NCBI GenBank assembly: GCA_030390025.1
Contig: JASTWF010000338.1
Coordinates: 248,001-312,000 of the forward strand
Length of the DNA stretch: 64,000 nt
From: Squalus acanthias
Lineage: Eukaryota
Direction: 5' to 3'
Shown here: positions 1,553 through 34,935 of the stretch, piece after piece
Position numbering within the stretch: the first letter of the stretch is position 1
How the letters are laid out: each line of letters starts with the position of its first letter
The notes under the pieces: generated by a model
Told to the model about the DNA's origin: nothing
The model's database searches: none
The model's input: the letters and a program-made list of their open reading frames with translations, nothing else
Translations under genes and position numbers: made by a program

Positions 1553-2089
1553 ACCCTCCTTTAAAATGCTCCTCAAAACCGATCTGTTTGACCAAGATTT
1601 GAATCAACTGCCCGAATTTCTCCTTCTGTGGCTCGGCATCAAATGTTGTTTTATAACATCCTGTGAAGCACCTTGGGACGTTTCACTGTGTTAAAGGTGC
1701 TACATCAATACAAGTTGTTGTTGTTGCCCCCTGATTGGCCGCTCACTCAACCTGTCTATACTTTCCCACCTAGCTTTGTATCTTCAGCAAACCTGGATAC
1801 CTTGCACTCCATCCCTTCAATTGTTTCTTATAGTCTTTGTTCTTCTGATATAACATCCCCCATCTGCCTATTTATTCCTTTAAACAGTCCCTTTAATTGC
1901 TTGAACATTGTTTATCATGTTCCCACATTCTCTTTATGTCAATTCACCTGGTTTTCACCCCGAATTGCTCTTAGTAAAATCGTGTACCATTTCTCTTAGC
2001 ACTGGATGATGAAATTCTACAATCACACGGTTACATCAATCGGAAAACAAAGGTACTGAAGAAAAATTTAACAGAGGAGGAAAATTTGC

Positions 2090-2405
2090 GTGACATCAAT
2101 ACTTTCAAACACAGTTCCTCCAATTGCCATCAAACTCAGGGGTATTTTAAGATCTCAGTCTCACTGACTACTTTCTCCAACATAGTTTTAACTGCTCGAT
2201 TTGTTCTTTCCACCACTTGCGGGTGTTATGGGATGTGGAAATTCTGTTCTATCCCGAACATTGTGCACATTTCTTTCATGACCCAGCCCACAAAGCATTG
2301 TCCATTATCACCAGCGATCGCCTCCAACTCCCGACTTCAAAAGAACTTGTTCCACAAGAACTTTCGCAGTAGTGAGCGTGGTGGTATCACTCCGAGCTGA
2401 AACTT
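2090..2405 (-). pseudogene. Decayed retroviral/LTR integrase core fragment
   Basis: Manual minus-strand translation gives ...GDNGQCFVGWVMKEMCTMFGIEQNFHIP*HPQVVERTNRAVKTML, matching the D..E region of DDE integrases. Confidence 0.65.
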
Positions 2406-2727
2406 AAAAACCGAATACAGCTTGTCTTTCCATTCAGCAATTCAATGTGGCAAATAGAAGTAAGGGGTTAATTACTTGTTCACTGTGAAAAACCCTTGGG
2501 GGTGGGGAGGAGTCAGCCAGCACAATGGCAGTTTCAGACCTGCTGTTTAATCAATAAAAAATGCATTAAAAGTTCAAATTGTAACTTTGTAAATCTCCAA
2601 AGCTGCTTTAATCCTCTTTAAAAAAAAGTCTTTGTTTGTTTCAACAGTGGAATAAAATAAATTTCATTCAGAATAAATCCACAGCAGCGTCTTGAATTTA
2701 AAATGTCCACTTTTCATTAAAGCACAA

Positions 2728-12304: not shown

Positions 12305-13564
12305 AACATCTTCGGGGGGCGGGGGGGGGGGGGAACACATGAAATTTTGCAAATCTTTTCAGGAGTCACCGATACTGAGTGAATGGGGTTGGGAGGGAGT
12401 CACCTGTACTCAGTGAATGGGGTTGGGAGGGAGTCAGCTATACCGAGTCAATGGGGTTGGGAGGGAGTCACCTATACTCAGTGAATGGGGTTGGGAGGGA
12501 GTCACCTATACTCAGGGAATGGGGTTGGGAGGGAGTCACCTATACTGAATGAATGGGGTTGGGAGGGAGTCACCTATACTGAGTCAATGGGGTTGGGAGG
12601 GAGTCACCTATACTGAATGAATGGGGTTGGGAGGGAGTCACCTATACTCAGGGAATGGGGTTGGGAGGGAGTCACCTATACTGAGTGAATGGTGTTGGGA
12701 GGGAGTCACCTATACTGAGTCAATGGGGTTGGGAGGGAGTCACCTATACTGAGTCAATGGGGTTGGGAGGGAGTCACCTATACTGAATGAATGGGGTTGG
12801 GAGGGAGTCACCTATACCGAGTGAATGGGTTTGGGAGGGAGTCACCTATACCGAGTGAATGGGGTGGGGAGGGAGTCACCTATACTCAGTAAATGGGGTA
12901 GGGAGGGAGTCACCTAAACCGAGTGAATGGAGTTCGGAGGGAGTCACCTTTACTCAGTGAATGCGGTTGGGAGGGAGTCACCTATACTGAGTGAATGGGG
13001 TTGGGAGGGAGTCACCTATACTCAGTGAATGGGGTTGGGAGGGAGTCACCTATACAGAGTGAATGTGGTTGGGAGGGAGTCACCTATACTGAGTGAATGG
13101 GGTTGGGAGGGAGTCACCTATACTGAGTGAATGGGGTTGGGAGGGAGTCACCTATACTGAGTGAATGGGTGGGAGGGAGTCACCTATATCTGAGTGAATG
13201 GGTTGGGAGGGAGTCACCTATACTGTGAAATGGGTGGGAGGGAGTCACCTATACTGATTGAATGGGGTTGGAGGGAGTCACCGATACCTGAGTGAATGGG
13301 GTGGAGGGAGTCACCTATACTGAGTGAATGGGGTTGGGAGGGAGTCACCTATACTCAGTGAATGGGTTTGGGAGGAGTCAACTATACTCGACTGAATGGG
13401 GTTGGGAGGGAGTCACCTATACCGAGTGAATGGGTTTGGAGGGAGTCACCTATACTGAGTGAATTGGGTTGGGAGGGAGTTACCTATACCGAGTGATTGG
13501 GGTTGGGAGGTAGTCACGTATACCGAGTGAATGGGAATGGGAGGGAGTCACCTATAGTGAGTGA

Positions 13565-13780
13565 CATGAATCTGTTATTCATGACTTATGAAATAATACT
13601 CAGTGGCCTGTGGGTAGCGCTGTCCAGGGAGAGTATAAATACTCGGGCACGGGCCCAGCTTGCGCAGGACATTCTTAACAGGAACCAGTGAAGGATACAA
13701 CTGGACCTCCATGTTGAAAAACAGTAGATTAAAGCTTTGCTTAACCCTTAGACCAAGTGCCGAGTAGTTTTCTTCCGTCG
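13565..13780 (+). mobile_element. 216-bp LTR-like insert within satellite (copy 1)
   Basis: Non-satellite sequence with TATAAATA and ATTAAA, flanked by GTGAGTGA direct repeats. Confidence 0.5.
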
Positions 13781-16700
13781 GTGAGTGAATGGGGTTGGGA
13801 TGGAGTCACCTATTCCGAGTCAATGGGGTTGGGAGGGAGTCACCTATTCCAAGTCAATGGGGATGGGAGAGAGTCACCTATTCCGAGTCAATGGGGTTGG
13901 GATGGAGTCACCTATTCCGAGTCAATGGGATTGAGAGGGAGTCACCTATTCCGAGTCAATGCGGTTGGGAGGGAGTCACCTATACCGAGTCAATGGGGTT
14001 GGGAGAGAGTCACCTATTCCGAGTCAATGGGGTTGAGAGGGAGTCACCTATTCCGAGTCAATGGGGTTGAGAGGGAGTCACCTATTCCGAGTCAATGGGG
14101 TTGAGAGGGAGACACCTATTCTGAGTCAATGGGGTTGGGAGGGAGTCACCTATTCCGAGTCAATGGGGTTGAGAGGGAGTCACCTATTCCGAGTCAATGG
14201 GGTTGGGAGGGAGTCACCTATTCCGAGTCAATGGGGTTGGGAGAGAGTCACCTATTCCGAGTCAATGGGGTTGGGAGAGAGTCACCAATTCTGAGTCAAT
14301 GGGGTTGGGAGAGAGTCACCTATTCCGACTCAATGGGGTTGAGAGGGAGACACCTATTCTGAGTCAATGGGGTTGGGAGGGAGTCACCTATTCCGAGTCA
14401 ATGGGGTTGGGAGGGAGTCACCTATTCAGAGTCAATGGGGTTGGGAGGGAGTCACCTATTCCGAATCAATGGGTTGGGAGGGAGTCACCTATTCCGAGTC
14501 AATGGGGTTGGGAGGGAGTCAACTATTCCGAGTCAATGGGGATGGGAGGGAGACAGCTATTCCGAGTCAATGGGGTTGGGAGGGAGTCACCGATACTGAG
14601 AGATTGGGGTTGGGAGGGAGTCACCTATACTGAGTGAATGGGGTTGGGATGGAGTCACCTATATCGAGTCAATGAGGTTGGGAGGGAGGCATCTGTACCA
14701 CGTGATAGAGGTTGGGAGGGAGTCACGTATACTGAGTGAATGGGGTTGGGAGGGAGTCACCTATACTGAGTGAAGGAGGTTGGGAGGGAGTCACCTATAC
14801 TCAGGGAATGGGGTTGGGAGGGAGTCACCTATACTGAGTGAATGGGGTTGGGAGGGAGTCACTATACCGAGTCAATGGGGTTGGGATGGAGTCACCGACA
14901 CTGAGTGAATGGGGTTAGGAGGCAGTCACCTATACCGAGTGAATGGGGTTGGGAGGGAGTCACCTGTACTGAGTGAATGGGGTTGGGAGAGAGTCACCGA
15001 TACTGAGCGATTGGGGTTGGGAGGGAGTCACCTGTACCACGTGATTGAGATAGCGAGGGAGTCACCTATACTGAGTGAATGGGGTTGGGAGGGAGTCACC
15101 TATACTGAGTGAATGTGGTTGGGAGGGAGTCACCTATATTGAATGAATGGGGTTGGGAAGGAGTCACCTATTCCGAGTCAATGGGGTTGGGAGGGAGACA
15201 GCTATTCCGAGTCAATGGGGTTGAGAGGGAGACACCTATTCTGAGTCAATGGGGTTGGGAGGGATTCACCTATTCCGAGCCAATGGGGTTGGGAGGGAGT
15301 CACCTATTCCGAGTCAATGGGGTTGGGAGGGAGTCACCTATTCCGAGTGAATGGGGTTGGGAGGGAGTCACCTATATCGAGTCAATGAGGTTGGGAGGGA
15401 GGCACCTGTACCACGTGATAGAGGTTGGGAGGGAGTCACGTATACTGAGTGAATGGGGTTGGGAGGGAGTCACCTATACTGAGTGAAGGAGGTTGGGAGG
15501 GAGTCACCTATACTCAGGGAATGGGGTTGGGAGGGAGTCACCTATACTGAGTGAATGTGGTTGGGAGGGAGTCACCTATACTGAATGAATGGGGTTGGGA
15601 GGGAGTCACCTATACCGATTGAATGGGGTTGGGAGGGAGTCACCAATACTGAGTGAATGGTGTTGGGAGGGAGTCACCTATACTCAGGGAATGGGGTTGT
15701 GAGGGCGTCACCTATACTGAGTAAATGTGGTTGGGAGGGAGTCACCTATACTGAATGAATGGGGTTGGGAGGGAGTCACCTATACCGATTGAATGGGGTT
15801 GGGAGGGAGTCACCAATACTGAATGAATGGGGTTGGGAGGGAGTCACCTATACTCAGTGAATGGGTTTGGGAGGGAGTCAACTATACTCATGAATGGGGT
15901 TGGGAGGGAGTCGCCTATACCAAGTGAATGTGGTTTGGACGGGAGTCACGTATACTGAGTGAATGGAGTTGGGATGGAGTCACCTATGCTGAGTGAATGG
16001 GGTTGGGAGGGAGTCACCTATACTCACTGAATGGGGTTGGGATGGAGTCAACTATATCGAGTCAATGAGGTAGGGAGGGAGTCACCTGTACCACGTGATT
16101 GAGTTTGGGAGGGATTCACCTATACTGAGTGAATGCGGTTGGGAGGGAGTCACCTATACTCAGTAAATTGGGTTGGGAGGGAGTCACCTATACCGAGTGA
16201 ATGTGGTTTGGACGGGAGTCACGTATACCGAGTGAATGGGGTTGGGAGGGAGTCACCGATACCGAGTGAATGGGGTTGGGAGGCAGTCACCTATACCGAG
16301 TGAATGGGGTTGGGAGGGAGTCACCTATACTGAGTGAATGTGGTTGGGAGGGAGTCACCATTACTGAATGAATGGGGTTGAGAGGGAGTCACCTATACCG
16401 ATTGAATGGGGTTGGGAGGGAATCACCAATACTGAGTGAATGGGGTTGGGAGGGAGTCACCTATACTCAGGGAATGTGGTTGTGAGGGAGTCACCTATAC
16501 TGAGTGAATGTGGTTGGGAGGGAGTCACCTATACTGAATGAATGGGGTTGGGAGGGAGTCACCTATACCGATTGAATGGGGTTGGGAGGGAGTCACCAAT
16601 ACTGAGTGAATGGGGTTGGGAGGGAGTCACCTATACTCAGTAAATTGGGTTGGGAGGGAGTCACCTATACTCAGGGAATGGGGTTGTGAGGGAGTCACCT

Positions 16701-19051
16701 ATACTGAGTGAATGTGGTTTGGACGGGAGTCACATATACTGAGGGAATGGGTTTGGGAGGGAGTCACCTTTGCTCAGTGAAAGGGGTTGCGATGGAGTCA
16801 CCTCTATCGAGTCAATGAGGTTGGGAGGGAGGCACCTGTACCACGTGATAGAGGTTGGGAGGGAGTCACATATACTGAGGGAATGGGGTTTGGAGGGAGT
16901 CACCTATACTGATTGAAGGAGGTTGGGAGGGAGTCACCTATACTCAGGGAATGGGGTTGGGAGGGAGTCACCTATACTGAGTGAATGGGGTTGGGAGGGA
17001 GTCACCGATACCGAGTCAATGGGGTTGGGAGGGAGTCACCTATACTCAGTAAATTGGGTTGTGAGGGAGTCACCTATACCAAGTGAATGTGGTTTGGACG
17101 GGAGTCACGTATACTGAGTGAATGGGGGAGGGAGTCACATATACCGAGTGAATGGGGTTGGGAGGGAGTCACCTATACTCAGTAAATTGGGTTGTGAGGG
17201 AGTCACCTATACCAAGTGAATGTGGTTTGGACGGGAGTCACGTATACTGAGTGAATGGGGTTGGGAGGGAGTCACCTATACTGAGTGAATGTGGTTGGGA
17301 GGGAGTCACCCATACTGAATGAATGGGGTTGGGAGGGAGTCACCTATACCGAGTGAATGGGGTTGGGAGGGAGTCACCAATACTGAGTGAATGGTGTTGG
17401 GAGGGAGTCACCTATACTGAGTGAATGGGGTTGGGAGGGAGTCACCTATACTGAGTGAATGGGGGTGGGATGGAGTCACCTATACTAAGTAAATTGGGTT
17501 GGGAGGGAGTCACCTATACTGAGTGAATTGGGTTGGGAGGGAGTCACCTATACTGAGTGAATGAGGTTGGGAGGGAGTCACCTATACTGAGTGAATCGGG
17601 TTCGGAGGGAGTCACCTATACCGAGTGAATCGGGTTGGGAGGGAGTCACCTATACCGAGTGAATGGTGGTGGGATGGAGTCACCTATACTAAGTGAATTG
17701 GGTTTGGATGGAGTCACATATACCGAATGAATGAGGTTGCGTGGGAGTCACCTATACTGAGTGAATGGGGTTGGGAGGGAGTCACCTATACTCAGTAAGT
17801 GGGGTTGGGAGGGAGTCACCGATACTGAGCGATTGGGGTTGGGAGGGAGTCACCTATACTGAGTGAATGGGGTTTGGGTGGAGTCACCTATATCGAGTCA
17901 ATGAGGTGGGGAGGGAGTCACCTGTACCACGTGATTGAGGTTGGGAGGGAGTCACCTATACTGAGTGAATGGGGTTGGGAGGGAGTCACCTATACTGAGT
18001 CAATGGGGTTGGGAGGGAGTCACCTATACTCAGGGAATGGGGTTGGGAGGGAGTCACCTATACTGAATGAATGGGGTTGGGAGGGAGTCACCTATACTGA
18101 GTCAATGGGGTTGGGAGGGAGTCACCTATACTGAATGAATGGGGTTGGGAGGGAGTCACCTATACTCAGGGAATGGGGTTGGGAGGGAGTCACCTATACT
18201 GAGTCAATGGTGTTGGGAGGGAGTCACCTATACTGAGTCAATGGGGTTGGGAGGGAGTCACCTATACTGAGTCAATGGGGTTGGGAGGGAGTCACCTATA
18301 CTGAATGAATGGGGTTGGGAGGGAGTCACCTATACCGAGTGAATAGGTTTGGGAGGGAGTCACCTATACCGAGTGAATGGGGTGGGGAGGGAGTCACCTA
18401 TACTCAGTAAATGGGGTAGGGAGGGAGTCACCTAAACCGAGTGAATGGAGTTCGGAGGGAGTCACCTATACTGAGTGAATGGGGTTGGGAGGGAGTCACC
18501 TATACTGAGTGAATGGGGTTGAGAGGGAGTCACCTATACCGAGTGAATTGGGTTGGGAGGGAGTCACCTATACTGAGTGAATGGGGTTGGGAGGGAGTCA
18601 CCTATACCGAGTGAATGTGGTTGGGAGGGAGTCACCTATACTGAGTGAATGGGTTGGGAGGGAGTCACCTATACTCAGGAATGGGTTGGGAGGGAGTCAC
18701 CTATACTGAGTGAATGGGGTTGGGAGGGAGTCACCTATACTCAGTGAATGGGTTGGGAGGGAGTCACCTATACTGAGTGAATGGGGTTGGGAGGGAGTCA
18801 CCTATACTGAGTGAATGGGTTGGGAGGGAGTCACCTATACTGAGTGAATGGGGTTGGGAGGGAGTCACCTATACTGAGTGAATGGGGTTGGGAGGGAGTC
18901 ACCTATACTGAGTGAATGGGGTTGGGAGGGAGTCACCTATACTGAGTGAATTGGGTTGGGAGGGAGTTACCTATACCGAGTGATTGGGGTTGGGAGGTAG
19001 TCACGTATACCGAGTGAATGGGAATGGGAGGGAGTCACCTATAGTGAGTGA

Positions 19052-19268
19052 CATGAATCTGTTATTCATGACTTATGAAATAATACACAGTGGCCTGTGG
19101 GTAGCGCTGTCCAGGGAGAGTATAAATACTCGGGCACGGGCCCAGCTTGCGCAGGACATTCTTAACAGGAACCAGTGAAGGATACAACTGGACCTCCATG
19201 TTTGAAAAACAGTTGATTAAAGCTTTGCTTAACCCTAAGACCAAGTGCCGAGTAGTTTTCTTCCGTCG
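19052..19268 (+). mobile_element. LTR-like insert within satellite (copy 2)
   Basis: Near-identical to 13565-13780, with the same flanking unit variants, 5487 bp downstream. Confidence 0.5.
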
Positions 19269-22200
19269 GTGAGTGAATGGGGTTGGGATGGAGTCACTTA
19301 TTCCGAGTCAATGGGGTTGGGAGGGAGTCACCTATTCCAAGTCAATGGGGATGGGAGAGAGTCACCTATTCCGAGTCAATGGGGTTGGGATGGAGTCACC
19401 TATTCCGAGTCAATGGGATTGAGAGGGAGTCACCTATTCCGAGTCAATGCGGTTGAGAGGGAGACACCTATTCTGAGTCAATGGGGTTTGGAGGGAGTCA
19501 CCTATTCCGAGTCAATGGGGTTGAGAGGGAGTCACCTATTCCGAGTCAATGGGGTTGGGTGGGAGTCACCTATTCTGAGTCAATGGGGTTGGGAGAGAGT
19601 CACCTATTCCGAGTCAATGGGGTTGGGAGGGAGTCACCGATACTGAGAGATTGGGGTTGGGAGGGAGTCACCTATACTGAGTGAATGGGGTTGGGATGGA
19701 GTCACCTATATCGAGTCAATGAGGTTGGGAGGGAGGCACCTGTACCACGTGATAGAGGTTGGGAGGGAGTCACGTATACTGAGTGAATGGGGTTGGGAGG
19801 GAGTCACCTATACTGAGTGAAGGAGGTTGGGAGGGAGTCACCTATACTCAGGGAATGGGGTTGGGAGGGAGTCACCTATACTGAGTGAATGGGGTTGGGA
19901 GGGAGTCACCTATACCGAGTCAATGGGGTTGGGATGGAGTCACCTATACCGAGTGAATGGGGTTGGGAGGGAGTCACCTGTACTGAGTGAATGGGGTTGG
20001 GAGGGAGTCACTATACTGAATGAATGGGGTTGGGAGGGAGTCACCGATACCGATGAATGGGGTTGGAGGGAGTCACCAATACTAAGTGAATGGGGTTTGG
20101 AGGGAGTCACCTATACTCAGTGAATGGTTGGGAGGGAGTCACTATACTCGAGTGAACGGGTTGGGGAGGGAGTCACCTATACTGAGTGAATGGGTTTGGA
20201 GGGAGTCACCTATCTCAGGTGAATGGGGTTGGGAGGGAGTCACCTATACCTGAGTGAATGTGGTTGGAGGGAGTCACCTATACTGAGTGAATGCGGTTGG
20301 GAGGGAGTCACCTATACTGACTGAATGGGGTTGGGAGGGAGTCACCTATACTGAGTGAATGGGGTTGGGAGGGAGTCACCTATACTCAGTAAATTGGGTT
20401 GGAGGGAGTCACCTATACCAAGTGAATGTGGTTTGGACGGGAGTCACGTATACTGAGTGAATGGGGTTGGGAGGGAGTCACCTATACTGAGTGAATGGGG
20501 TTGGGAGGGAGTCACCAATACTGAGTGAATGGTGTTGGGAGGGAGTCACCTATACTCAGGGAATGGGGTTGTGAGGGAGTCACCTATACTGAGTAAATGT
20601 GGTTGGGAGGGAGTCACCTATACTGAATGAATGGGGTTGGGAGGGAGTCACCTATACCGATTGAATGGGGTTGGGAGGGAGTCACCAATACTGAGTGAAT
20701 GGGGTTGGGAGGGAGTCACCTATACTCAGTGAATGGGTTTGGGAGGGAGTCAACTATACTCACTGAATGGGGTTGGGAGGGAGTCACCTATACCAAGTGA
20801 ATGTGGTTTGGACGGGAGTCACGTATACTGAGTGAATGGAGTTGGGATGGAGTCACCTATGCTGAGTGAATGGGGTTGGGAGGGAGTCACCTATACTCAC
20901 TGAATGGGGTTGGGATGGAGTCAACTATATCGAGTCAATGAGGTAGGGAGGGAGTCACCTGTACCACGTGATTGAGTTTGGGAGGGATTCACCTATACTG
21001 AGTGAATGCGGTTGGGAGGGAGTCACCTATACTCAGTAAATTGGGTTGGGAGGGAGTCACCTATACCGAGTGAATGTGGTTTGGACGGGAGTCACGTATA
21101 CTGAGTGAATGGGGTTGGGAGGGAGTCACCGATACCGAGTGAATGGGGTTGGGAGGCAGTCACCTATACCGAGTGAATGGGGTTGGGAGGGAGTCACCTA
21201 TACTGAGTGAATGTGGTTGGGAGGGAGTCACCCATACTGAATGAATGGGGTTGAGAGGGAGTCACCTATACCGATTGAATGGGGTTGGGAGGGAGTCACC
21301 AATACTGAGTGAATGGGGTTGGGAGGGAGTCACCTATACTCAGGGAATGTGGTTGTGAGGGAGTCACCTATACTGAGTGAATGTGGTTGGGAGGGAGTCA
21401 CCTATACTGAATGAATGGGGTTGGGAGGGAGTCACCTATACCGATTGAATGGGGTTGGGAGGGAGTCACCAATACTGAGTGAATGGGGTTGGGAGGGAGT
21501 CACCTATACTCAGTAAATTGGGTTGGGAGGGAGTCACCTATACTCAGGGAATGGGGTTGTGAGGGAGTCACCTATACTGAGTGAATGGGGTTGGGAGGGA
21601 GTCACCTATACTCAGTAAATTGGGTTGGGAGGGAGTCACCTATACCAAGTGAATGTGGTTTGGACGGGAGTCACGTATACTGAGTCAATGGGGTTGGGAG
21701 GGAGTCACCTATACTGAGTGAATGTGGTTTGGACGGGAGTCACATATACTGAGGGAATGGGTTTGGGAGGGAGTCACCTTTGCTCAGTGAAAGGGGTTGC
21801 GATGGAGTCACCTATATCGAGTCAATGAGGTTGGGAGGGAGGCACCTGTACCACGTGATAGAGGTTGGGAGGGAGTCACATATACTGAGGGAATGGGGTT
21901 GGGAGGGAGTCACCTATACTGAGTGAAGGAGGTTGGGAGGGAGTCACCTATACTCAGGGAATGGGGTTGGGAGGGAGTCACCTATACTGAGTGAATGGGG
22001 TTGGGAGGGAGTCACCGATACCGAGTCAATGGGGTTGGGAGGGAGTCACCTATACTCAGTAAATTGGGTTGTGAGGGAGTCAACTATACCAAGTGAATGT
22101 GGTTTGGACGGGAGTCACGTATACTGAGTGAATGGGGGAGGGAGTCACATATACCGAGTGAATGGGGTTGGGAGGGAGTCACCTATACTCAGTAAATTGG

Positions 22201-24486
22201 GTTGTGAGGGAGTCACCTATACCAAGTGAATGTGGTTTGGACGGGAGTCACGTATACTGAGTGAATGGGGTTGGGAGGGAGTCACCTATACTGAGTGAAT
22301 GTGGTTGGGAGGGAGTCACCCATACTGAATGAATGGGGTTGGGAGGGAGTCACCAATACTGAGTGAATGGTGTTGGGAGGGAGTCACCAATACTGAGTAA
22401 ATGTGGTTGGGAGGGAGTCACCTATACTGAATGAATGGGGTTGGGAAAGAGTCACCTATACCGATTGAATGGGGTTGGGAGGGAGTCACCAATACTGAGT
22501 GAATGGGGATGGGAGGGAGTCACCTATACTCAGTGAATGGGTTTGGGAGGGAGTCAACTATACTCAGTAAATTGGGTTGGGAGGGAGTCACCTATACCGA
22601 GTGAATGTGGTTTGGACGGCAGTCACGTATACTGAGTGAATGGGTTTGGGAGGGAGTCACCTTTGCTCAGTGAATGGGGTTGGGAGGGAGTCACCAATAT
22701 CGAGTCAATGAGGTTGGGAGGGAGGCACCTGTACCACGTGATAGAGGTTGGGAGGGAGTCACCTATACTGAGTGAATGTGGTTTAGACGGGAGTCACGTA
22801 TACTGAGTGAATGGGGTTGGGATGGAGTCACCTATACCGAGTGAATGGGGTTGGGAGGGAGTCACCTATACCGATTGAATGGGGTTTGGAGGGAGTCACC
22901 AATACTGAGTGAATGGGGTTGAGAGGGAGTCACCTATACTCAGGGAATGGGGTTGTGAGGGAGTCACCTATACTGAGTAAATGTGGTTGGGAGGGAGTCA
23001 CCTATACTGAATGAATGGGGTTGGGAGGGAGTCACCTATACCGATTGAATGGGGTTGGGAGGGAGTCACCAATACTGAGTGAATGGAGTTGGGATGGAGT
23101 CACCTATACTGAGTGAATGGGTTGGGAGGGAGTCACCTATACTCAGTGAATTGGGTTGGGAGGGAGTCACCTATACCAAGTGAATGTGGTTTGGACGGGA
23201 GTCACGTATACTGAGTGAATGGGGAAGGGAGGTTGTCACCGATACTGAGTGAATGGGGTTGGGATGGAGTCACCTATACTCACTGAATGGGGTTGGGATG
23301 GAGTCAACTATATCGAGTCAATGAGGTAGGGAGGGAGTCACCTGTACCACGTGATTGAGTTTCGGAGGGATTCACATATACTGAGTGAATGCGGTTGGGA
23401 GGGAGTCACCTATACTCAGTAAATTGGGTTGGGAGGGAGTCACCTATACCGAGTGAATGTGGTTTGGACGGGAGTCACGTATACTGAGTGAATGGGGTTG
23501 GGAGGGAGTCACCGATACCGAGTGAATGGGGTTGGGAGGCAGTCACCTATACCGAGTGAATGGGGTTGGGAGGGAGTCACCTATACTGAGTGAATGTGGT
23601 TGGGAGGGAGTCACCCATACTGAATGAATGGGGTTGAGAGGGAGTCACCTATACCGATTGAATGGGGTTGGGAGGGAGTCACCAATACTGAGTGAATGGG
23701 GTTGGGAGGGAGTCACCTATACTCAGGGAATGTGGTTGTGAGGGAGTCACCTATACTGAGTGAATGTGGTTGGGAGGGAGTCACCTATACTGAATGAATG
23801 GGGTTGGGAGGGAGTCACCTATACCGATTGAATGGGGTTGGGAGGGAGTCACCAATACTGAGTGAATGGGGTTGGGAGGGAGTCACCTATACTCAGTAAA
23901 TTGGGTTGGGAGGGAGTCACCTATACTCAGGGAATGGGGTTGTGAGGGAGTCACCTATACTGAGTGAATGGGGTTGGGAGGGAGTCACTTATACTCAGTA
24001 AATTGGGTTGGGAGGGAGTCACCTATACCAAGTGAATGTGGTTTGGACGGGAGTCACGTATACTGAGTCAATGGGGTTGGGAGGGAGTCACCTATACTGA
24101 GTGAATGTGGTTTGGACGGGAGTCACATATACTGAGGGAATGGGTTTGGGAGGGAGACGCCTTTGCTCAGTGAAAGGGGTTGCGATGGAGTCACCTATAT
24201 CGAGTCAATGAGGTTGGGAGGGAGGCACCTGTACCACGTGATAGAGGTTGGGAGGGAGTCACATATACTGAGGGAATGGGGTTGGGAGGGAGTCACCTAT
24301 ACTGAGTGAAGGAGGTTGGGAGGGAGTCACCTATACTCAGGGAATGGGGTTGGGAGGGAGTCACCTATACTGAGTGAATGGGGTTGGGAGGGAGTCACCT
24401 ATACTCAGTAAATTGGGTTGTGAGGGAGTCACCTATACCAAGTGAATGTGGTTTGGACGGGAGTCACGTATACTGAGTGAATGGGG

Positions 24487-24686
24487 NNNNNNNNNNNNNN
24501 NNNNNNNNNNNNNNNNNNNNNNNNNNNNNNNNNNNNNNNNNNNNNNNNNNNNNNNNNNNNNNNNNNNNNNNNNNNNNNNNNNNNNNNNNNNNNNNNNNNN
24601 NNNNNNNNNNNNNNNNNNNNNNNNNNNNNNNNNNNNNNNNNNNNNNNNNNNNNNNNNNNNNNNNNNNNNNNNNNNNNNNNNNNNNN
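24487..24686. other. Assembly gap (200 N)
   Basis: Run of Ns. Confidence 1.
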
Positions 24687-25274
24687 TAGTTGAGGCCTGT
24701 TCATTCCATTGTCTTAGTTTTGCGGGCTTGTTAAGTTTTGATGGTTTTAACTTGGTGTTAATTTGTCCTGATGGCTTCCGATGTCTCCCATTTAGGCAGG
24801 GCCTTTATCTACGTGCCAAATCTTGTCCCTACAGATACCTGGCTGATTGGTTTTTGATGAAGTAATGGCTGTACTAGATGTTTTATTGTTTACAGGCTTC
24901 TGGCATCCTGTTTGGGCCTGGGGATATTCAAAAGGTGTCTTGAATTATTCAATTTTGGATGTGTTGTGAGGTTTTGGGTGAGGTTCTTCCTCCTGCCTGG
25001 ATTGCAGTGCAAACAAATTCCAGACAGCTTGACTGCAAAAGTTGTCCACTGCCTCGCCACACCCCTTCGCAAAGGTGGTTTTTTTTCCATAGTCATTTTC
25101 GAAAGTCATTTTTCCTCAGGTTTTTTTCTTCCCTGATCTTTAAAATGTCCAAAACTGAGGTTTTTACCTCAAATCACTTCACTTATTTCCCATCATCCCA
25201 AATCCGTAGGAAAAATCCAAAAATCACCCCTTTTAGGGTTCTATACGAGTTTCTGGGGAATTTTGCAAAGCTTA

Positions 25275-26240
25275 CAGGGAACTAGATGTAATATCTCCAA
25301 GTTTGCAGATGACTCAAAGTTGGGTGGGCGTGTGTGTTGTGTGGAGGATGCAGAGAAACTCCAGTATGATTTGGACAAGTTGGGTGATTGGGCAGGTGCA
25401 TGGCAGATGCAGTATAATGTGGATAAATGCGAGGTTATCCACTTTGGTGGCAAAAACAGGAAGGCAGATTATTATCTGAATGGCAATAGATTGGGAAAAG
25501 GGGAAGTGCAACGAGACCTGGGGGTCCTTGTGCACCAGTCGCTGAAGGTAAGCATGCAGGTGCAGCATGCGGTTAAGAAGGCAAATGGAATATTGGCCTT
25601 CATAGCGAGAGGATTCGAGTACAGGGGCAAGGATGTCTTGCTGCAGTTGTACAGGGCCTTGGTGAGACCACACCTTGAGTATTGTGTGCAGTTTTGGTCG
25701 CCTTATCTGAGGAAGGACGCTCTTGCCATGGAGGGAGTGCAGCGAAGATTCAGCAGACTGATGCCTGGGATGGCAGGAATGACGTATGAAGAGAGATTGG
25801 GACGATTGGGCTTGTATTCGCTAGAGTTTAGAAGAATGAGAGGGGATCTCATTGAAACTTATAAAATTCTAACAGGACTAGACAGACTAGATGCAGGAAG
25901 GATGTTCCCGATGGCGGGGGAGTCCAGAAACAGGGGTCACAGTCTAAGGATAAGGGGTAGGCTATTTAGGACTGAGAGGAGGAGGAATTTCTTCACCCAG
26001 AGAGTGGTGAACCTGTGGAATTCTCTACCACAGAAGGCAGTAGAGGCCAATTCATTAAATATATTCAAGAAGGAGATAGATATATTTCGTAAGGCTAAAG
26101 GGATCAAGGGATATGGGGAGAAAGCAGGGACAGGGTACTGAATTTGGATGATCCGCCATGATCTCATTGAATGGCGGAGCAGGCTCGAGGGGCCGAATGG
26201 CCTACTCCTGCTCCTATCTTCTATGTTTCTATGTTTCTAT
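25275..26240 (+). mobile_element. CR1 LINE, 5'-truncated, young (ORF2 C-terminus uninterrupted)
   Basis: 292-aa ORF SKFADDSKLGG...IKGYGEKAGTGY with a (TTCTATGT)n tail. Confidence 0.95.
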
Positions 26241-27722
26241 CCCCATGATAGAGTGATTGGAACGCCCACAATCTACTGGGACTGGGTAGGCTTCAGTGGC
26301 TAGGCGGAGCTGACACAGGCTCAGTGAATTGCTGAACGGGTGGAGGGCTGCGAGGTGTTTGTTGCTAATCCAGGAGGGGACTAAACCTTGTTTTAAATCC
26401 TCCAGGTTGCTGCAGCCCTCGCCCAGCAACCATGCCCCGTGTAGCACACACACCTCATTCTGTGCAGCCTGATCCAAAGCATTCCTATCCTCCCGTATGA
26501 GTGCATTTACTGTTTTAGCGTGTCTCTCTAGCTCAGCAATGATCTCCTTTAAATGGACCGTCATAGCTTGGTCCTCGTGTAGCTTTGAGCCTACCGCTTT
26601 GTTTTCTTCCATTAGGATCTTTCGTAGTTGGGTTTTTAGACCATTTATCTGTGTTTGTAGTTCTATATCGTCCAGGCTATTTATTACAGAGGATCCTGTA
26701 TTGTAGGTAGTGAAAATATCGTTCCAGGTCCCCCTTCTTTGTCTCCCTGCGCCCATAGTGTGCTCTGCGTGTAGTTTGTACAGCTCTGCTTTGTCTATGT
26801 TGGCAAAGTCAAATTCGTAGAATTTCCTAAACATTTCTTTCAGCAGGGCCTGGTGTAGCTGTTCTGTCTCCTTAGGACACCATTCAGGTAAGTGTACCTC
26901 GGTAAGGTTTAAAATAACTGAAGCTGCTGCATAGTGTACCCCCTGGTAGAGTACCTTTTCGGTCGGCACTAGCACTAGCCCATTCTCTGGTCCCTTGGTG
27001 GTGGAAGGACACCTCTCTATCACTGTCTGTGATGTCGTGGTCGTGGGCAGGGGCTTTCGGGGGCGTGCTACTAGTTTGGTGACGTTGACTGGAATCGGGG
27101 AGTGTGGGAGCGCGCACGCATGCAGGCTAGAGTCCCACCCCATCCCCTTCCCGGTGTCTTGTCATTGTCTGGAGAAGATGATGGATATGCCTGTGGGGCA
27201 GGCTCTCTCTGATCCCCACATACAGACATAGATTCCCTGTTCCGACTCCCACCACTTATTCCAACACACACCCACTCCCCCTTGGGTCCCTGTGATCGTC
27301 CAGTAGGTGTCGTTCCCCAGTCGTTCCCAGTCAGCTGTACGGTCCCCTATGTCCCTGCTCAGCTTCCTGAGCCACCACCACCTATCCAGGGGAATCCGTC
27401 CCTTGCAGGTGAGACACACACGTTTCCCCTCAGTGACGCTGACCCTTGTAGCAACGACCTGTACCCTGGGGCACGAGATGGAGGCCTCCCCGTAGGTGAA
27501 CCCGGTCTGGCTGGAGTATTTTGTGGAGTTCGACCCCAGCCACCCTGGCCAGCTTCCCTCATGGAAGTAAATAGCGAGCTCCTCCACACCCGGTTTGCCA
27601 CCCCCAGCGGTAACGATCGGCGCTCTCTCTCCCGAGCACCCATAAATGTGGGAGTCCTCCACGTCACCTCGGTCACCAATGCTCACCCCTACCAGGGCGA
27701 GCAGGAGCAGAACCCTTGTCAT
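26241..27722 (-). pseudogene. env: env: signal peptide + Ig-like domain + class I fusion-like protein; one in-frame TGA (27162-27164), C-terminus truncated by CR1
   Basis: MTRVLLLLALVGVSIG; VSVTEGKRVCLTC...WWW...GIYVC; furin site RQRR|G followed by heptad IELQTQINGLKTQLRKIL. ORFs 27162-27749 and 26229-27143 are in the same frame. Confidence 0.75.
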
Positions 27723-27735
27723 GCCGATTTCCTCT

Positions 27736-27760
27736 CTGTAGGGACACACAAAACAGATAG
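27736..27760 (-). promoter_or_regulatory. Putative env splice acceptor
   Basis: Minus strand CTATCTGTTTTGTGTGTCCCTACAG|AGAGGAAATCGGC-ATG, with the acceptor 13 nt before the env ATG. Confidence 0.6.
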
Positions 27761-27924
27761 CCCTGTCCCGAGAAGGTTCTCTGGCTTGACAGGTGATCGA
27801 GTCTCGAAAATTTACTTACTTAAGTAAAAATAATTCACTAAAACTAAAACTACCAAAAACTGTAAAACACACCTAAAATACCTAAAAACTCTGTACATCT
27901 GCCGCCCGTCTCCGGACGGCCAGG

Positions 27925-30900
27925 CTAATTCCTGTATGGCCTCTGCCTTGGGCAGCCTCTCAGCAGCCTGTACGCCTGGGCGTAAGGTGGCCTGTACCGC
28001 AGGACCCGGAGAGTCCTTCTTAAAACGGCTGAGGGTTTCCCTGAATCCCTGATAATCCGGGGAGTGTCCCCTCCTGTGCTACAGCACACTACCCCCTTTG
28101 GTGTGGCTGCTGAGTCCCTGTCCTGTCCTGTGGGTTCCCCGCAGCCTGAGGCTGCAGGCTGGGGATCCCTCTTCTTAGAATGACCCCTGACTTTGGGTAT
28201 TCTCTTTCGGGTTGTGGCCCTTGCTGGGCTGAAGCACTGAAACTCTGGTGACCACGGTCGTTTTGGCTGTGGTGTGCGAGGAGACCTTCTCAGGACTCTG
28301 GCTACCGGGGGTGCGTCCGAGTCCCACATAATTGGTGGGGTAGCCCCTCCGGTGACACAAGCCACTGCCCCTACCGGTGCGGTCTGTGAGTCTGCCACAG
28401 CTGCTGGCTGAGGCTCTCTAACTTTAGGGCGGTTCGCCCTTGCTGGCTGTTCCCCTTTGGATTTAAACAGCTTACACTGCTTAATGTGGAACCACTTGGT
28501 GCGGCGGGGCATCATTATGGCGTAGACCATGGGGCTTGCCTTGTCGACAATGCTGTACGGCCCCATGTACAGTGGTTCAAAACTCCCTACCCGGGCAAAA
28601 TTCCTAACCATGACCTGATCCCCTATCTCCCACTCGTGGTGCTTGCGGGGTTCTAGCAGCAGTCGGTTACTCCGATGCTGTTTTCCCATGTTGCTAGCAG
28701 CCTGCCAGTGAACCTGTTTAAGGTGTTCAAACAGATTCCTGACAAAGCTGTCCCAGTTGACCTCACTGAGCTGACCCTCCGTGAGCAATGGGGCTAGCAC
28801 ATGGGTGGGGGTCCGCATAATCCTACCAGTCATAAGCTGGTGTGGGGAATACCCCGTGCTTTTTGACTGGCTGGCTCGGATCCCCATTAGGACCAACGGT
28901 AAGACTTCTACCCACTTCTTGGGTGAGTCTCCCGTTTCCTTCCGTAGCCTTTCCTTAATGGTACGGTTTAAACGCTCCACAGGACCCGATGACTGCGGGT
29001 TGTGGGCGACGTGCCAGTTCCCTTCAATGCCGAGTACGCTGAGGGTCTCTTGCATGACCTGCCCGGTAAAATGACTCCCCTGGTCGGACTCCACATACTG
29101 CGGTAGACCCCATCATGAGAACACTTCCCTGACCAGGATCCTAGCCATACCCAATGCGGTAGCAGTACGGCATGGGAACGCTTCCACCCACTTTGAGAAC
29201 ACATCCACCAGGACTAGGCAGTACTTAAAGCCTCCCTGGGCGGTGGGTAGGGGCCCAATGTAATCGACCTGGATCGACTGCCATGGTCCCTCTACCCTCC
29301 TGATGTGTCCCATAGATACCTTCCTTTTCTGGGGGTCTGGGTTGTTAGCAGCACACACCAAACAGCCGGCACAAAACTCGCGGACCTCTTCCCTGAGTCC
29401 TGGCCACCATCCTGTCTGTTCCACCCGTTGCCAGGTGGTCTCAGGTCCGGGATGCCCCGCTCCTGGACCCTCATGGGCCAGTTGGAGGAATTCCCTTCGG
29501 TGCTGCTGCGGCACCATCCACTGCTCCCCCCTGAACAGCATGCCTTCCTTAACGGTGATGGCTGCTGTGCCGTACGGGCCCTCTATCTTTTCCCCTTTTA
29601 CCAGGGTGTTCAGGACGGCCTTGAGGACGGTATCCTGGGCTTGGGCCTGCTTTAAGTCCGGGGCCAAGGCTACCCACTGGGTGCCTCCCTTGCTCCGGAT
29701 TGCGGCTACCGGACCTGTTTGGTACGCATCCCAGAATACCCCTTCCCTGGCCCCCTGTTTGGCCAGCTTGTCTGCCTTACAGTTACTCTCCCACCTGGGC
29801 TCTGTTTTTGAATGGGCCTTGACCTTATGGATATAGACCTTCCCTTCCTCCTCCACGGCCGCCATGATTTTCTCCAACAGGGGCTTTATGGTGAGGGGTC
29901 TCCCATCAGCGGAGGTATATCCGCGACGGGACCAGATGGCCAGGTACTCCGTACACGAATTGCATGTGAACATGCTGTCCGAGCAAATCGTGTATGGGGT
30001 AGGGAACTTCTCGGGGTGTGTAACCACGTACACTACCGCAGACAGTTCAGCCTGCTGGGCGCTCATGGTGCTGGGGAGTTTAATTGCCAGGGCAATGCCT
30101 GCCTCCTGGTCATAAACTCCACACCCGGTGAGTCGCTCGCCAGCAGATACTGTGCTCGAACCGTCCACATAGATTTCGCGGCGTGTGGGGTGTATCCCGG
30201 CCCGAAAACCTATGTTGACTTCCCATACCCCTTCAATGGAACACCGGTGGGCAGTCCCTGGGTAGATCATGTTGGCTGCGAGCTTCGGCTCGCAGAGACC
30301 TTTCACCCTTAGGTCCATCTGGGAGAGAAGCAGGGTCCAGCGAGCAATGCGGGCACTGCTCACTGTCCAGACTTTGATTCTCCCATCTAGGAGCATCTGC
30401 GTGGGCGTGTGATGGGTGAGCAGGGTGATGGGAGATGTTCCTGTGAAGATCAATGATCTTTTCACAGCCCAGTGAGTGGCAAGGAGGTGCCTCTCACAGT
30501 TGGAATAGCCCTTCTCCACATCGGTGAGTATCCTGGAGGAGTAAACCACTGGTCTCAGCCGGTCGTGCCTCTCTTGGAGCAGCACGGCACTGAGACTGTC
30601 CCCGCTGGCTGCCACCTCCAGGAAAAACTCCCTCTCCCCATCAATGGCCCCTAGAGCCGGCGCGGTCTGCAGATCTTTCTTTAACTTGAGAAATGCTGCC
30701 TCGCAACCCTCGTCCCAGATCCACTCCACACCCTTGTGTAGGAGTCGGAGCAGAGGGGCTGCGGTGGCTGCGTAATCCTCAATGAAATCTCTGCAGTACC
30801 CGGTTAACCCTAGAAAGGATCTCACTCCTGTGACTGTGTTGGGGGCTGGTAACTCCTGCACTGCTTCCCTCCTAGCTTTGTCGATGGCCCGTTCCCCAGC

Positions 30901-32123
30901 GCGCACAGTTAGTCCGAGGAATTTTACTTCCTGTTGGCCGATCTGTACCTTCTTTGGGTTCACTTTGAAGCCTTCTTGCCGGAGCAGCTCCAGCAGTTCA
31001 GCCAGTAGTGGACCGTGTTCCTCTCCCTCATCGGTGAACAGGAGTAGGTCATCCACATACTGTACCAACTGCCGGGGCCGGCTGAAGCCCTTCAAACAAT
31101 TCGCCATGCATTGGTGAAAAATGCTAGGGCTGTTGTGGAAGCCCTGAGGTAGGCAGTTCCAGGTGTACTGTTGGCCTTTAAAAGTGAAGGCGAACTTGTA
31201 CTGGTCCTCTCTTCATAAAGGGATGGACCAAAACCCGTTGGAAATGTTCAGCACTGTGAAAGTGGTCGCGGATGCTGGGATACTTCCGATGAGGTCGGTG
31301 ATGGCTGCTACCGTGGGTGCACAGGCGGGGATGTTACGGTTGAGTGCCCGATAGTCCACTGTGGCCCTCCAGGAGTTGTCCGGTTTTCTAACCGGCCACA
31401 GTGGAGAGTTTACGTGGGTGGCTATCGGTCTCAATACCCCCTGTGTTACTAAAGAAGCCATGGCCTTTTCCATGTCTGCTTCCGCCTCCCTGGGGAAATT
31501 GTATTGCTTCTGTGGTCGGGTCATGGGATCCCCACTGACACTAACCTCAACCCCGTTTACCCTCCCACAATCGTGCTTGTGAGTGGCAAATGCTGCGAGA
31601 TGTGCTTGCACAAATGCCTGGTATGCCATCGGAGTGTTACTGACCATTTGTTCGAGGTCATAACCTTCCTTTGGTTTCAGGGTGCACAAGGTCCCCTTGC
31701 CCTGTTTCCCTGGGATGACTGCCACTTCACTTTCTCTGCCAGTACATGCTCCCCACTGACAATGGTTCCTAAGATCCACTAGAATCCTGTGGCCTGTGAT
31801 AAAGTCGGCCCCCAGGATCCCCGTCCCTTCCCGCTCCCATTTCATCAGGACACAGGTCCACTTGGTGTGGAGTGCTCCTAAATGAATGGACAGCGGGATG
31901 GAGAACGAGCCAGCCTGCTCATTACCTGTAAACTCCACTAATCTGTACGGGAGCCGTTAGACAGAGGTGAGGCGGCGGGGTTGGCTGAATAGACTATGGT
32001 GCTGGAAGCTCCAGTATCTAACAGATAAGTCCCTTTCACCTTCTCCACCTCCATCCTAACGAGTGTTCTCTTCCATGCGTCGTACTCCAGGGGACACAGG
32101 TAGACAGGCTGCGCTGGCTCTAG
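27925..32123 (-). pseudogene. pol: pro-pol (protease, RT, tether, RNase H, integrase); one frameshift (~31950) and two in-frame TGA (31213, 29113)
   Basis: LLDTGASST; ILGADF; NSPLWPVRKP..W.ATVDYR; LPQGF; YVDD; IYVDGSS/SAQQAEL/SDS/KVKAH; HHCC; VDYIGP; SDQG; VERLNRTIK; GPY. Confidence 0.9.
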
Positions 32124-32888
32124 TCATAAGTCTGCGTTAGGGGGGGCAGATGGGGTTAAAGCAGCAGTGGCGGTGGCTACTTTCCCCGGGCCGTTTACTA
32201 GAGCTCGGATCGCAGCCATGACCGAGTCTAATGTGGGGGAAGAGGTCAGTGCTTCGGTGCTTGGGGCAGGAGCTGGAGAGTTCTTCCCTATGTTATCCTT
32301 CCACAGATTCCTGCAGTCTTTTCTCCAATGCCAACTCTTCCCGCACCAGAAGCAGTTACGCTTCGTGTCGGAAGGGTTACCCCCTTCCTGGTGCCACTCT
32401 TTCTTTTTGCTAGGCCTTATTTCATGTACCTTTCCCTTAGGTGGGTGCTCTTCTGTCCCTCTACCATTCCGGTAAGCCAGGGTCAGTTGTCTGACCACTG
32501 TCTCCTCGGTGACCCGGGGGTCTTTCGGGTCAAACCACAGCTCAGCCTTGGCCCTGATCCGTGGCAAGCTGTTTGCCACTAGGCTTCGGAGCCAGTGGGC
32601 CAGCTCATCCTGATTCAGGTGAGCCCGGTCGAGAACTCCAATACAGGCACTCCTGTACACAGGCCACAGTCGGTCTGCGAAAGCCTGTGGGGTCTCCCCT
32701 ACAAGCTGGGTTGTCTTCTCCACCCGGGAGAAGGGACTACCATCATTCATTCCCATGGCCTCCAGAACTCCCTCCCGGATAGTGGCATATCCACCCTGAC
32801 CTCTTTTACTCTCTGCGGAGAGGGACTGGTAGATTTTGCTATCTAGGAAGAACAGGAGCATCTTTGCCATCTCGGCATCATCGCAATC
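32124..32888 (-). pseudogene. gag: gag C-terminal portion with zinc knuckle, 5' part lost at a CR1 junction
   Basis: QLVGETPQAFADRL (MHR-like) and CFWCGKSWHWRKDC, directly upstream of protease. Confidence 0.85.
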
Positions 32889-34089
32889 GTGGTGTATTTG
32901 GACTTTCAGAAGGCTTTCGATAAGGTCCCGCATAAGAGATTAGCGTGCAAAGTTAAAGCACATGGGATTGGTGGGGGTAAGGTACTGACTTGGATAGAAA
33001 ACTGGTTGGCAGACAGGAAGCAAAGAGTTGGAATAAAGGGGTCTTTTTCCGAGTGGCAGGCAGTGACTAGTGGGGTACCGCAGGGATCGGTGCTAGGACC
33101 CCAGCTATTCACAATATATATTAATGATCTAGACGAGGGAACTAGATGTAATATCTCCAAGTTTGCAGACAACACAAAGCTAGGTGGGCGTATGTGCTGT
33201 GAGGAGGTTGCAGAGAAACTGCATTATGATTTGGACAGGTTGGGTGATTGGGCAGATGCATGGCAGATGCATGGATAAATGCGAGGATATCCACTTTGGT
33301 GGCAAAAACAGGAAGGCACATTATCTGAACGGCAATAGATTGGGAAAAGGGGAAGTGTAACGAGACCTGCGTGTCCTTGTGCACCAGTCGCTGAAGGTAA
33401 GCATGCAGGTGCAGCAGGCGGTTAAGAAGGCAAATGGTATGTTGGCCTTCATAGCGAGAGGATTAGAGTACAGGAGCAAGGATGTCTTGCTGCAGTTGTA
33501 CAGGGCCTTGGTGAGACCATACCTTGAGTATTGTGTGCAGTTTTGGTCGCCTTATCTGAGGAAGGATGCTCTTGCCATGGAGGGAGTGCAGCGAAGATTC
33601 ACCAGACTGATACCTGGGATGGCAGGAATGACGTATGAAGAGAGATTGGGTCGATTAGGCTTATATTCGCTAGAGTATAGAAGAATGAGAGGGGATCTCA
33701 TTGAAACTTATAAAATTCTAACAGGTCCAGACAGACTAGATGCAGGAAGGCTGTTCCCGATTGCGGGGGAGTCCAGAACCAAGGGTCACAGTCTAAGGAT
33801 AAGGGGTAAGCCATTTAGGACTGAGAGGAGGAGGAATTTCTTCACCCAGAGAGTGGTGAACATGTGGAATACTCTACCACAGAAGGTAGTTGAGGCCAAT
33901 TCATTAAATATCTTCAAGAAGGAGTTAGATATATTTCTTAAGGCTAAAGGGATCAAGGGATATGGGGAGAAAGCAGGGACAGGGTACTGAATTTGGATGA
34001 TCAGCCATGATCACATTGAATGGCGGAGCAGGCTCGAGGGGCCGAATGGCCTACTCCTGCTCCTATCTTCTATGTTTCTATGTTTCTAT
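32889..34089 (+). mobile_element. CR1 LINE, same subfamily as 25275-26240
   Basis: VYLDFQKAFDKVPH...GVPQGSVLGP, and a nearly identical 3' end and tail. Confidence 0.95.
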
Positions 34090-34935
34090 GACAGTCACTC
34101 TCACCTCACCTCTGGAATTCAGCTCTTTTGTCCATGTTTGGACCAAGGCTGTAATGCGGTCAGGAGCCAAGTGGTCCTGACGGAAACCAAACTGGTCATC
34201 GGTGAGCTGGGTATTTGTGCCTTTGTTAGTGCCGCTTGATAGCATTGTCGATGACAGCTTCCATCACTTTGCTGATGATGGAGAGATGGCTGATGGGATG
34301 GTAACGGGCTGTCGGATTAGTCCAGCTTTTTGTGGACTGTACATACCTGGCCAATTTACCACTTTGTCGGGGCGATGCCAGTACGGGAACAGCTTGGATA
34401 GTGTTGCAGCTAGTTCTGGACACAGGTCTTCAGCACTGCAGCCGCGATGTTGTCAGAACCCATAGCCTTTGCTGTATCCAGTGCCCTGTACCGTTCTTGA
34501 TATCACATGGAGTGAAGTGAATTAGCTGAAGACTGGCTTCTGTGAGGGTGGGACCTCAGGAGCAGGCCAAGATGCATCATCCACTTGGCACTTGTGACTG
34601 AAGATGGTTGCGAAGGCTTCAGCCTTGTCTTTTTCACTCAGGTGCTGTGCTCCGCCATCATTCAGGATGTGGATGCCCAGTTTTGAGCTGCTAGATGTGC
34701 TCTGAATCTATTCCATTTATCACGGTGGTAGTGTACAGAACACGATGAAGGGGTGTCCTCAGTGACTCGGTAGTACCATGATTGACCAAGCTGGCTGAGT
34801 CCTGAAGGACATAGCAGCCAGACTGGCTCACGGCAGGTGGTGAGAGAACAAACACGAGCCACTACCATGCCACACTTGGTGATGGACATTGAAGTCCCCC
34901 ACCCAGAGTACATTCTGTGCACCAGCAGCCACAGT
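34090..34935 (-). mobile_element. Deleted fragments of the LINE family at 61050-64000
   Basis: Collinear similarity with parts of 62170-63465, including LWVGDFNVHH. Confidence 0.8.

Follow-up and report, generated by a model that had tools for sequence, protein, structure and literature searches.

Three described groups of retroviruses invite comparison with a retroviral locus of the shark Squalus acanthias that lies in a 64,000-nt stretch of contig JASTWF010000338.1 (the window, whose numbering is used throughout). Endogenous retroviruses (ERVs) resembling snakehead retrovirus (SnRV) are reported as the major class in the coelacanth and also from the elephant shark (PMC4977317, PMC4422223). 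Foamy viruses possess an envelope protein (Env) that shares the core of the F fusion proteins (PMC11468914). Lokiretroviruses have two RNase H domains, but these occur in all retroviruses, in Odin elements and in plant Tat elements (PMC7947760, PMC9040795), and therefore cannot diagnose a lokiretrovirus. The Squalus element is a true retrovirus, neither a Gypsy element nor a member of the gamma/epsilon (class I) retroviruses. Probably it is the defective remnant, without long terminal repeats (LTRs), of an early-branching canonical member of Retroviridae (SnRV-like or class III, clade Huo broadly taken); among the sequences sampled, frog and coelacanth ERVs are its nearest kin.

Reading of the open reading frames (ORFs) places gag, pro, pol and env on the minus strand, from 32888 down to 26241, with the following features:

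32127..32888, minus strand: gag fragment (ORF), C-terminal part of the capsid plus nucleocapsid, with a CX2CX4HX4C zinc knuckle at residues 179-192
32124..32126, minus strand: TGA stop codon of gag, sharing the reading frame of the protease; context TGA-CTA-G
31801..32123, minus strand: aspartic protease, DTG at 32010-32018 and ILGADF at 31801-31818, with a frame change near 31950
30715..31506, minus strand: reverse transcriptase (Pfam), with LPQGFHNSP and YVDD, a TGA at 31213-31215 and an Asn at 31246-31248
30319..30717, minus strand: tether, a degenerate Ty3/Gypsy-type RNase H (Pfam and alignment)
29749..30177, minus strand: catalytic-type RNase H, acidic residues kept (Pfam, motif reading)
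28471..29514, minus strand: integrase with HHCC zinc finger, DDE core, GPY-like motif and SH3-like C-terminal domain, with a TGA at 29113-29115
27925..28470, minus strand: low-complexity tail of the pol frame, from the end of integrase to the stop codon (ORF)
27736..27755, minus strand: candidate env splice acceptor, a pyrimidine tract plus CAG, 14 nt 5' of the env ATG (sequence)
26241..27722, minus strand: env, the 5' ~60% only, with a TGA at 27162-27164; the 3' part is gone
27189..27470, minus strand: probable Ig-like domain of Env, weakly supported (Pfam Ig_3)
26733..26744, minus strand: furin-type cleavage site RQRR of Env (sequence)

Pfam matches in Pol comprise RVT_1, RT_RNaseH/RT_RNaseH_2 (the tether), a second RNase_H (E 6e-20), Integrase_H2C2 and rve. 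A sequence-only reading, which had named the locus a near-intact lokiretrovirus-like provirus, described these parts accurately: a degenerate tether (motif at 30574-30627), in which alignment shows all three carboxylate positions of the Ty3 RNase H to be substituted; a second RNase H of catalytic type (motifs at 30154-30171, 30037-30057 and 29974-29988); YVDD in the reverse transcriptase (RT; 31045-31059); and an env 3' of the integrase-bearing pol frame. Its inventory of damage also holds, with one frameshift (inside the protease), three internal TGAs (one each in RT, integrase and env) and, in RT motif A, an Asn (a probable D-to-N change) where the catalytic residue belongs. A fourth TGA, which ends gag, is probably the natural gag stop and would be read through, TGA-CTA-G being a leaky stop context. 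The gag fragment has no Pfam match; Atlas features report Retrotrans_gag/zf-CCHC at 0.94, and matches of the nucleocapsid are otherwise weak. Spumaviral Gag is not known to carry a Cys-His zinc knuckle, and spumaviral Pol is expressed apart from Gag; the single CCHC knuckle in the Squalus Gag argues against a spumavirus. In the ancestral virus, Gag-Pol would have been produced when ribosomes read through the stop codon of gag, standard reverse transcription would have been carried out by an RT with tether and second RNase H, integration by the DDE integrase, and Env would have been translated from a spliced mRNA and cleaved by furin.

Phylogenetic position of Pol

Pol searches for anchor sequences yielded 108 matches among 8000 candidates and the best 120 of 332 among 3086; from these, 210 RTs were extracted, of which 140 were listed and scored for lokiretroviral (Loki) motifs taken from published alignments. 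The Loki anchors are proteins identified by these motifs, teleost where named; two mammalian foamy virus Pols and one gammaretrovirus are named as such by their source records. By eye, P0163 closely matches the published Loki-Lro, and the SnRV anchor (P0147, a Logan record) agrees nearly letter for letter with the published SnRV RT. Trees were built from hand-chosen rows, 73 (ten of them Loki) in one and 40 (four Loki), under a mixture model, in the other, and supersede an initial RT tree without Loki, foamy or SnRV anchors.

The RT of the Squalus element carries none of the four Loki motifs, of which 27 of the 140 listed RTs carry three or four, and has the canonical LPQG motif in place of a Loki motif. 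It falls inside a canonical clade to which Loki is sister (100/99 with 73 rows; 99/97 with 40 rows) and there groups with frog and coelacanth ERVs (88/95 and 96/97, respectively), as well as, in both trees, with P0004, which is 80% identical in Pol. Identities of the RT run in the same order: 50-53% to the frog and coelacanth ERVs, 43% to SnRV, 33-36% to Loki and 32-35% to feline and simian foamy viruses (FFV/SFV). SnRV-type motifs are found in RT (PTVA, ISNGFW and LPQGFH) and in RNase H (YLA-W-RRG...ADG). In approximately unbiased (AU) tests, grouping the element with Loki gave p 0.00135 and 0.0055, and 0.047 under the mixture model; grouping it with class I (p 0.011) or with Gypsy (p 0.0125) was rejected. 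A ten-row clade containing the element was likewise separated from Loki (p 0.025), and its union with SnRV was retained (p 0.38). The phylogenetic check that the sequence-only reading had proposed was run with Loki, foamy, SnRV, class I and Gypsy anchors and no Odin elements; the Loki grouping (only narrowly under the mixture model) and the class I and Gypsy groupings were rejected, and the foamy grouping was retained. As the name of a lineage, "lokiretrovirus-like" is not supported by this placement; used loosely, it suits the type of Env, the grouping of RNase H and the integrase, and not the RT. The element is probably not a lokiretrovirus.

The other domains of Pol were placed in trees of 58 rows (RNase H) and 62 rows (integrase). 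The RNase H of the Squalus element, together with those of frog, coelacanth and turtle ERVs, is found on the same side of its tree as Loki and simian foamy virus (99/94). Loki is monophyletic in both trees (100/98 for RNase H, 100/100 for integrase), and the element is not nested inside it in either. A separate observation from the integrase tree is that the integrase of NYNRIN/CGIN1 (P0054) nests among frog and coelacanth ERVs (98/90), unlike its published placement with Loki under sparser sampling; its branch is long, and a NYNRIN plus Loki grouping is retained by the AU test (0.086).

Envelope and its relatives

The Env of the window copy runs from a signal-peptide-like start through an Ig-like domain, a Thr/Pro-rich stalk and an F2-like segment to the furin site, a fusion-peptide region and a heptad region. 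Its 22 relatives include 17 that were looked up, every one from a shark or skate, in keeping with an elasmobranch host; the best is a sawshark protein (79%). This Env is probably of the F type, a fold modelled on the full-length relative P0128, which is 22-25% identical to the window Env (22% over 241 residues). The P0128 model (mean pLDDT, a per-residue confidence score, of 46) had 40 matches in the PDB at E<=0.001 and, among the matches listed, all are pneumovirus or paramyxovirus F proteins or foamy virus Env. In BFVD it had 27 matches, including F0 proteins, baculovirus F, feline foamy virus Env and the Envs of walleye epsilonretroviruses. The ancestral Env would accordingly be pictured as driving membrane fusion by an F-type class I machine like those of paramyxoviruses, pneumoviruses and foamy viruses.

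Several searches by sequence, profile or model were negative or gave weak matches. Pfam found no PF00523 match in the window Env (P0002), in any of the 22 relatives or in P0249. Neither a CX6CC motif nor an immunosuppressive domain (ISD) motif is present in the six Env sequences checked, which include full-length relatives. PDB sequence searches with Env and its alignment returned no fusion protein, and weak Ig matches only; VIA-align of the window Env model returned generic helical bundles only (Z<=7.4); Atlas assigned P0128 to one unnamed cluster at 0.82. Of 8000 candidates, the Env profile search picked up only two proteins; no Loki Env was among them, though this does not prove its absence.

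An Ig-like head of Env is weakly supported. Pfam Ig_3 matches the segment at E 0.006-0.075, under the curated cut-off; basigin and antibody chains are its best weak matches in sequence searches and with the model of the window Env, for which the matches listed, none at E<=0.001, are Ig-type chains of antibodies and basigin; and the segment has no significant pairwise match in P0128 (E 0.72). The F fold has been described as a scaffold that accepts receptor-binding modules at its N terminus (PMC11468914), and the N-terminal Ig-like module is likely to have been the attachment part, binding the host cell. The literature searched, which covered few subscription papers, describes no F-type or Ig-headed Env on an SnRV-like ERV, and 10.1101/2021.11.23.469661 deals, in its accessible part, with gamma- and beta-type Envs only.

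Three observations concern Envs outside the window. Those of WDSV and WEHV-1 (A4GTG3 and Q9WHI8) are among the BFVD matches of the low-confidence P0128 model, hinting that epsilonretrovirus Env may also be F-type. Two Pristiophorus japonicus gene models, P0132 and P0113, join pieces of the window Env family to a C2H2 zinc-finger gene and a Niban-like gene; in P0132 the host zinc-finger exons run into the start of the homologous env, and such fusions could reflect either use of an env splice acceptor or artefacts of annotation. Finally, intact Env-like proteins of 739-754 aa are present in Chiloscyllium punctatum (P0128, GCC29952.1), Scyliorhinus torazame (P0249, XP_072333160.1) and Heterodontus francisci (P0250, XP_067889054.1); all three are colinear, possess a furin site and a transmembrane helix, and are 85-88% identical. 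The splits among the three shark orders are well over 100 million years old. These sequences are candidates for a domesticated F-type env gene of galeomorph sharks, or else they may derive from a slowly evolving or cross-species-transmitted virus. No domesticated shark env is described in the literature searched, in which few subscription papers were covered; should the intact env that these three sharks (a bamboo shark, a catshark and a horn shark) have in common prove to be an undescribed domesticated gene, it would outweigh the main finding of this study.

Truncation of the copy and its surroundings

The description of the locus as a near-intact provirus has to be abandoned: no LTR, 5' part of gag or 3' part of env was found anywhere in the window. 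Self-BLAST of 24687-34500 against the window detected no LTR pair, matching only repeats of long interspersed nuclear elements (LINEs), and a repeat search of 15000-45000 was dominated by a 34-bp satellite. The Env ORF ends at residue 494, ~300 residues short of its full-length relatives, and what remains of it has no transmembrane helix, which was lost by truncation. Both ends of the element adjoin LINE fragments, which we take to be CR1-type from their sequence features:

32889..34090, plus strand: LINE 3' fragment B, with a (TTTCTATG)n tail; it removes the 5' part of gag, the primer-binding site and the 5' LTR
25276..26240, plus strand: LINE 3' fragment A, the tail of which adjoins the cut end of env (self-BLAST, junction reading)

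Fragments A and B lie on the same strand and are 93.8% identical to each other, and no target-site duplication was found at either LINE/ERV end. The junction of fragment A with env recurs in a contig from a public sequencing run (227 letters, two differences), and all four sequencing runs examined contain many contigs 85-99% alike that cover all 30 bins, with depths that give no copy number; the locus is therefore a real one, and belongs to a multi-copy family. Scans of metagenome and viral contigs for relatives gave 37 and two pattern matches, respectively, none of which was confirmed. After entering the germ line, the copy would have lost both ends, probably through LINE insertion and a subsequent deletion or recombination between LINE copies, and would have taken inactivating hits in protease, RT, integrase and Env. 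Because these four are broken and both ends are missing, the copy cannot replicate by itself. A joint move of fragment A, the ERV and fragment B, with a target duplication of 4 bp, was considered and rejected: the letters that match are part of another LINE, at 34092, and the upstream part of that LINE is not what forms the left flank. This second LINE family is present at 61072-63743 (minus strand) and 34092-34487, and has an RT frame open over 399 aa as well as a frame resembling an endonuclease; fragment B sits at the edge of its fragment 34092-34487.

The window has several further repeats and elements. A GC-rich Ty3/Gypsy element at 46021-49443 (minus strand) has three frames encoding gag-pro, an RT with YLDD, a single RNase H and integrase; as its CpG is not depleted (observed/expected 0.91), it is probably young. 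At 9727-10370 (plus strand) and 2089-2420 (minus strand) lie decayed remnants of RT and integrase from other retroviruses; their best matches are basal ERV Pols, among them the X. tropicalis type (48%), and they have no DNA match to the main element. A 34-bp tandem array of ~356 copies with strong GC skew occupies 12362-24486 and runs into a 200-N gap (24487-24686), and a 57-bp tandem repeat has 11 copies with 97% matches at 58590-59220. Rfam has no match in the window.

Alternative explanations and relation to known systems

Certain results weigh against an early-branching canonical origin. The RT trees were built without ERV-L, class II, fish foamy-like ERVs (FLERVs), Odin elements, non-teleost Loki or CmiERV lineage I; the Loki grouping is rejected only at the border under the mixture model, and union of the element with foamy viruses is retained (AU 0.076 and 0.113). 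SnRV itself stays outside the clade of the element in free trees, joining foamy viruses and class I (93/88 and 96/94), so that "SnRV-like" is used here as the label of a basal grade. The RNase H is on the side of Loki and foamy viruses, though outside Loki, and the integrase tree leaves the element without a resolved position, its grouping with Loki being retained (AU 0.219). As for Env, TM-scores of the P0128 fold matches are low (0.10-0.19) and both models are of low confidence (pLDDT 46 for P0128, 43 for the window Env), the latter having no structure match at E<=0.001.

The disagreement of the RT, RNase H and integrase trees over the position of Loki relative to the element could be explained by recombination, in which a canonical-type RT was combined with RNase H, integrase and/or env acquired laterally from lokiretroviruses. 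Retroviruses often have domains replaced (PMC7947760; 10.1101/2021.11.23.469661), but the element is not nested within Loki in the RNase H and integrase trees, the Env sequence and profile searches gave no sequence-level match to a Loki Env, and the frog and coelacanth kin behave likewise, consistent with an old common ancestry. Such a recombinant is unlikely.

Were the element instead basal and foamy-like (clade Tu), related to CmiFLERV/XtrFLERV or to an endogenous foamy virus of cartilaginous fishes, this would account for the retained foamy grouping, the probably F-type Env and the shared RNase H group, and a published cluster of frog and shark FLERVs (PMC5512871) mirrors the hosts of the clade to which the element belongs. 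However, free trees never recover the element with foamy viruses; its RT, with the low FFV/SFV identities given above, also differs by eye from the published RTs of AciFLERV, AliFLERV and ZFERV-2. Further marks against this explanation are the CCHC knuckle of Gag, a protease that follows gag in frame and the lack of a match to the Spuma A9 protease family; it is quite unlikely.

A true lokiretrovirus, which would extend that group to cartilaginous fishes and enter the gap left by the six chondrichthyan genomes from which the accessible part of PMC7947760 reports none, could claim the dual RNase H with env, a probably F-type Env, an integrase scoring 197-215 bits against those of Loki and the RNase H affinity, but is very unlikely in view of the absent RT motifs, the low RT identity, three AU tests that reject or nearly reject it, the absence (by eye) of the long pre-RT insert of the published Loki-Lch Pol, and the occurrence of F-type Env in foamy viruses (PMC11468914) and of walleye epsilonretrovirus Envs among the fold matches. 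Since foamy Env has an F core, an F-type Env does not make the element a lokiretrovirus.

In itself the copy is a dead ERV of an ordinary kind, and cartilaginous fish were already known to carry SnRV-like ERVs. Its interest is that pol and env are preserved in one piece, tying what appears to be an Ig-headed F-type envelope to a canonical retroviral RT and not to that of Loki, a warning for classification that dual RNase H plus an F-like Env does not equal a lokiretrovirus. Taken with foamy Env (PMC11468914) and the walleye fold matches, the window copy makes F-type Env look widespread at the retroviral base, and whether Env had one origin or several becomes a testable tree problem. Speculatively, the clade of shark, frog and coelacanth ERVs could be among the earliest canonical branches, keeping an RNase H of the Loki/foamy type, an integrase of the CGIN1 type and an Env of the F type from a common ancestor of Retroviridae and Loki that had an F-type envelope; the Ig head might have been gained in elasmobranchs, where an env might have been domesticated across three shark orders, and the wider clade might have given rise to mammalian NYNRIN. 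Contrary to a shared F-type ancestor, independent gain of envelopes is the scenario preferred in PMC9040795.

Compared with the SnRV-like ERVs of clade Huo (PMC4422223, PMC6001957, PMC4977317), the Squalus element shares SnRV-type motifs, a canonical RT and a basal position, and its RT identity to SnRV is the highest to any named virus in the set. A chondrichthyan host of this clade is already known, CmiERV lineage I of the elephant shark, which clusters with SnRV (PMC4422223) and whose sequence is not in the comparison. In contrast to SnRV, the element belongs to a shark-frog-coelacanth clade of its own that SnRV does not join in free trees, and its Env, probably F-type with an Ig-like head, is of a kind described for no clade Huo member in the literature searched, the SnRV Env being outside the comparison.

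Lokiretroviruses (PMC7947760) resemble the element in their gag-pol-env order, tether plus RNase H, furin site and RNase H on the Loki/foamy side, and probably in their F-class Env and an integrase near the CGIN1 type. Whereas they form an RT clade of their own, the element lies outside it, with LPQG for the Loki motif, a compact protease-RT junction, an apparent additional N-terminal Ig-like module in an Env without a PF00523 match, and no smc-like gene in its remaining part. Spumaretrovirinae and the FLERVs of fishes and sharks (PMC5512871, PMC11468914) have in common with it a YVDD RT, the RNase H group and probably an F-type (subclass Ib) Env, but the element has a CCHC nucleocapsid, gag and pro in one frame and an RT of low identity to theirs; their attachment module is inserted between the subunits, whereas that of the element would be N-terminal.

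NYNRIN/CGIN1 is like the kin of the element in that its integrase nests among the frog and coelacanth ERVs that are the RT sister group of the element (98/90). It is, however, a therian domesticated RNase H-integrase, a host gene fused to KH/NYN domains, and the integrase of the element has no resolved place in the same tree. The gamma- and epsilonretroviruses (clades Jin and Mu) are set apart by the AU test (p 0.011) and by the absence of ISD and CX6CC from all six Envs, and the Ty3/Gypsy elements (Metaviridae) by the AU test (p 0.0125) and by the two RNase H domains of the Squalus element.

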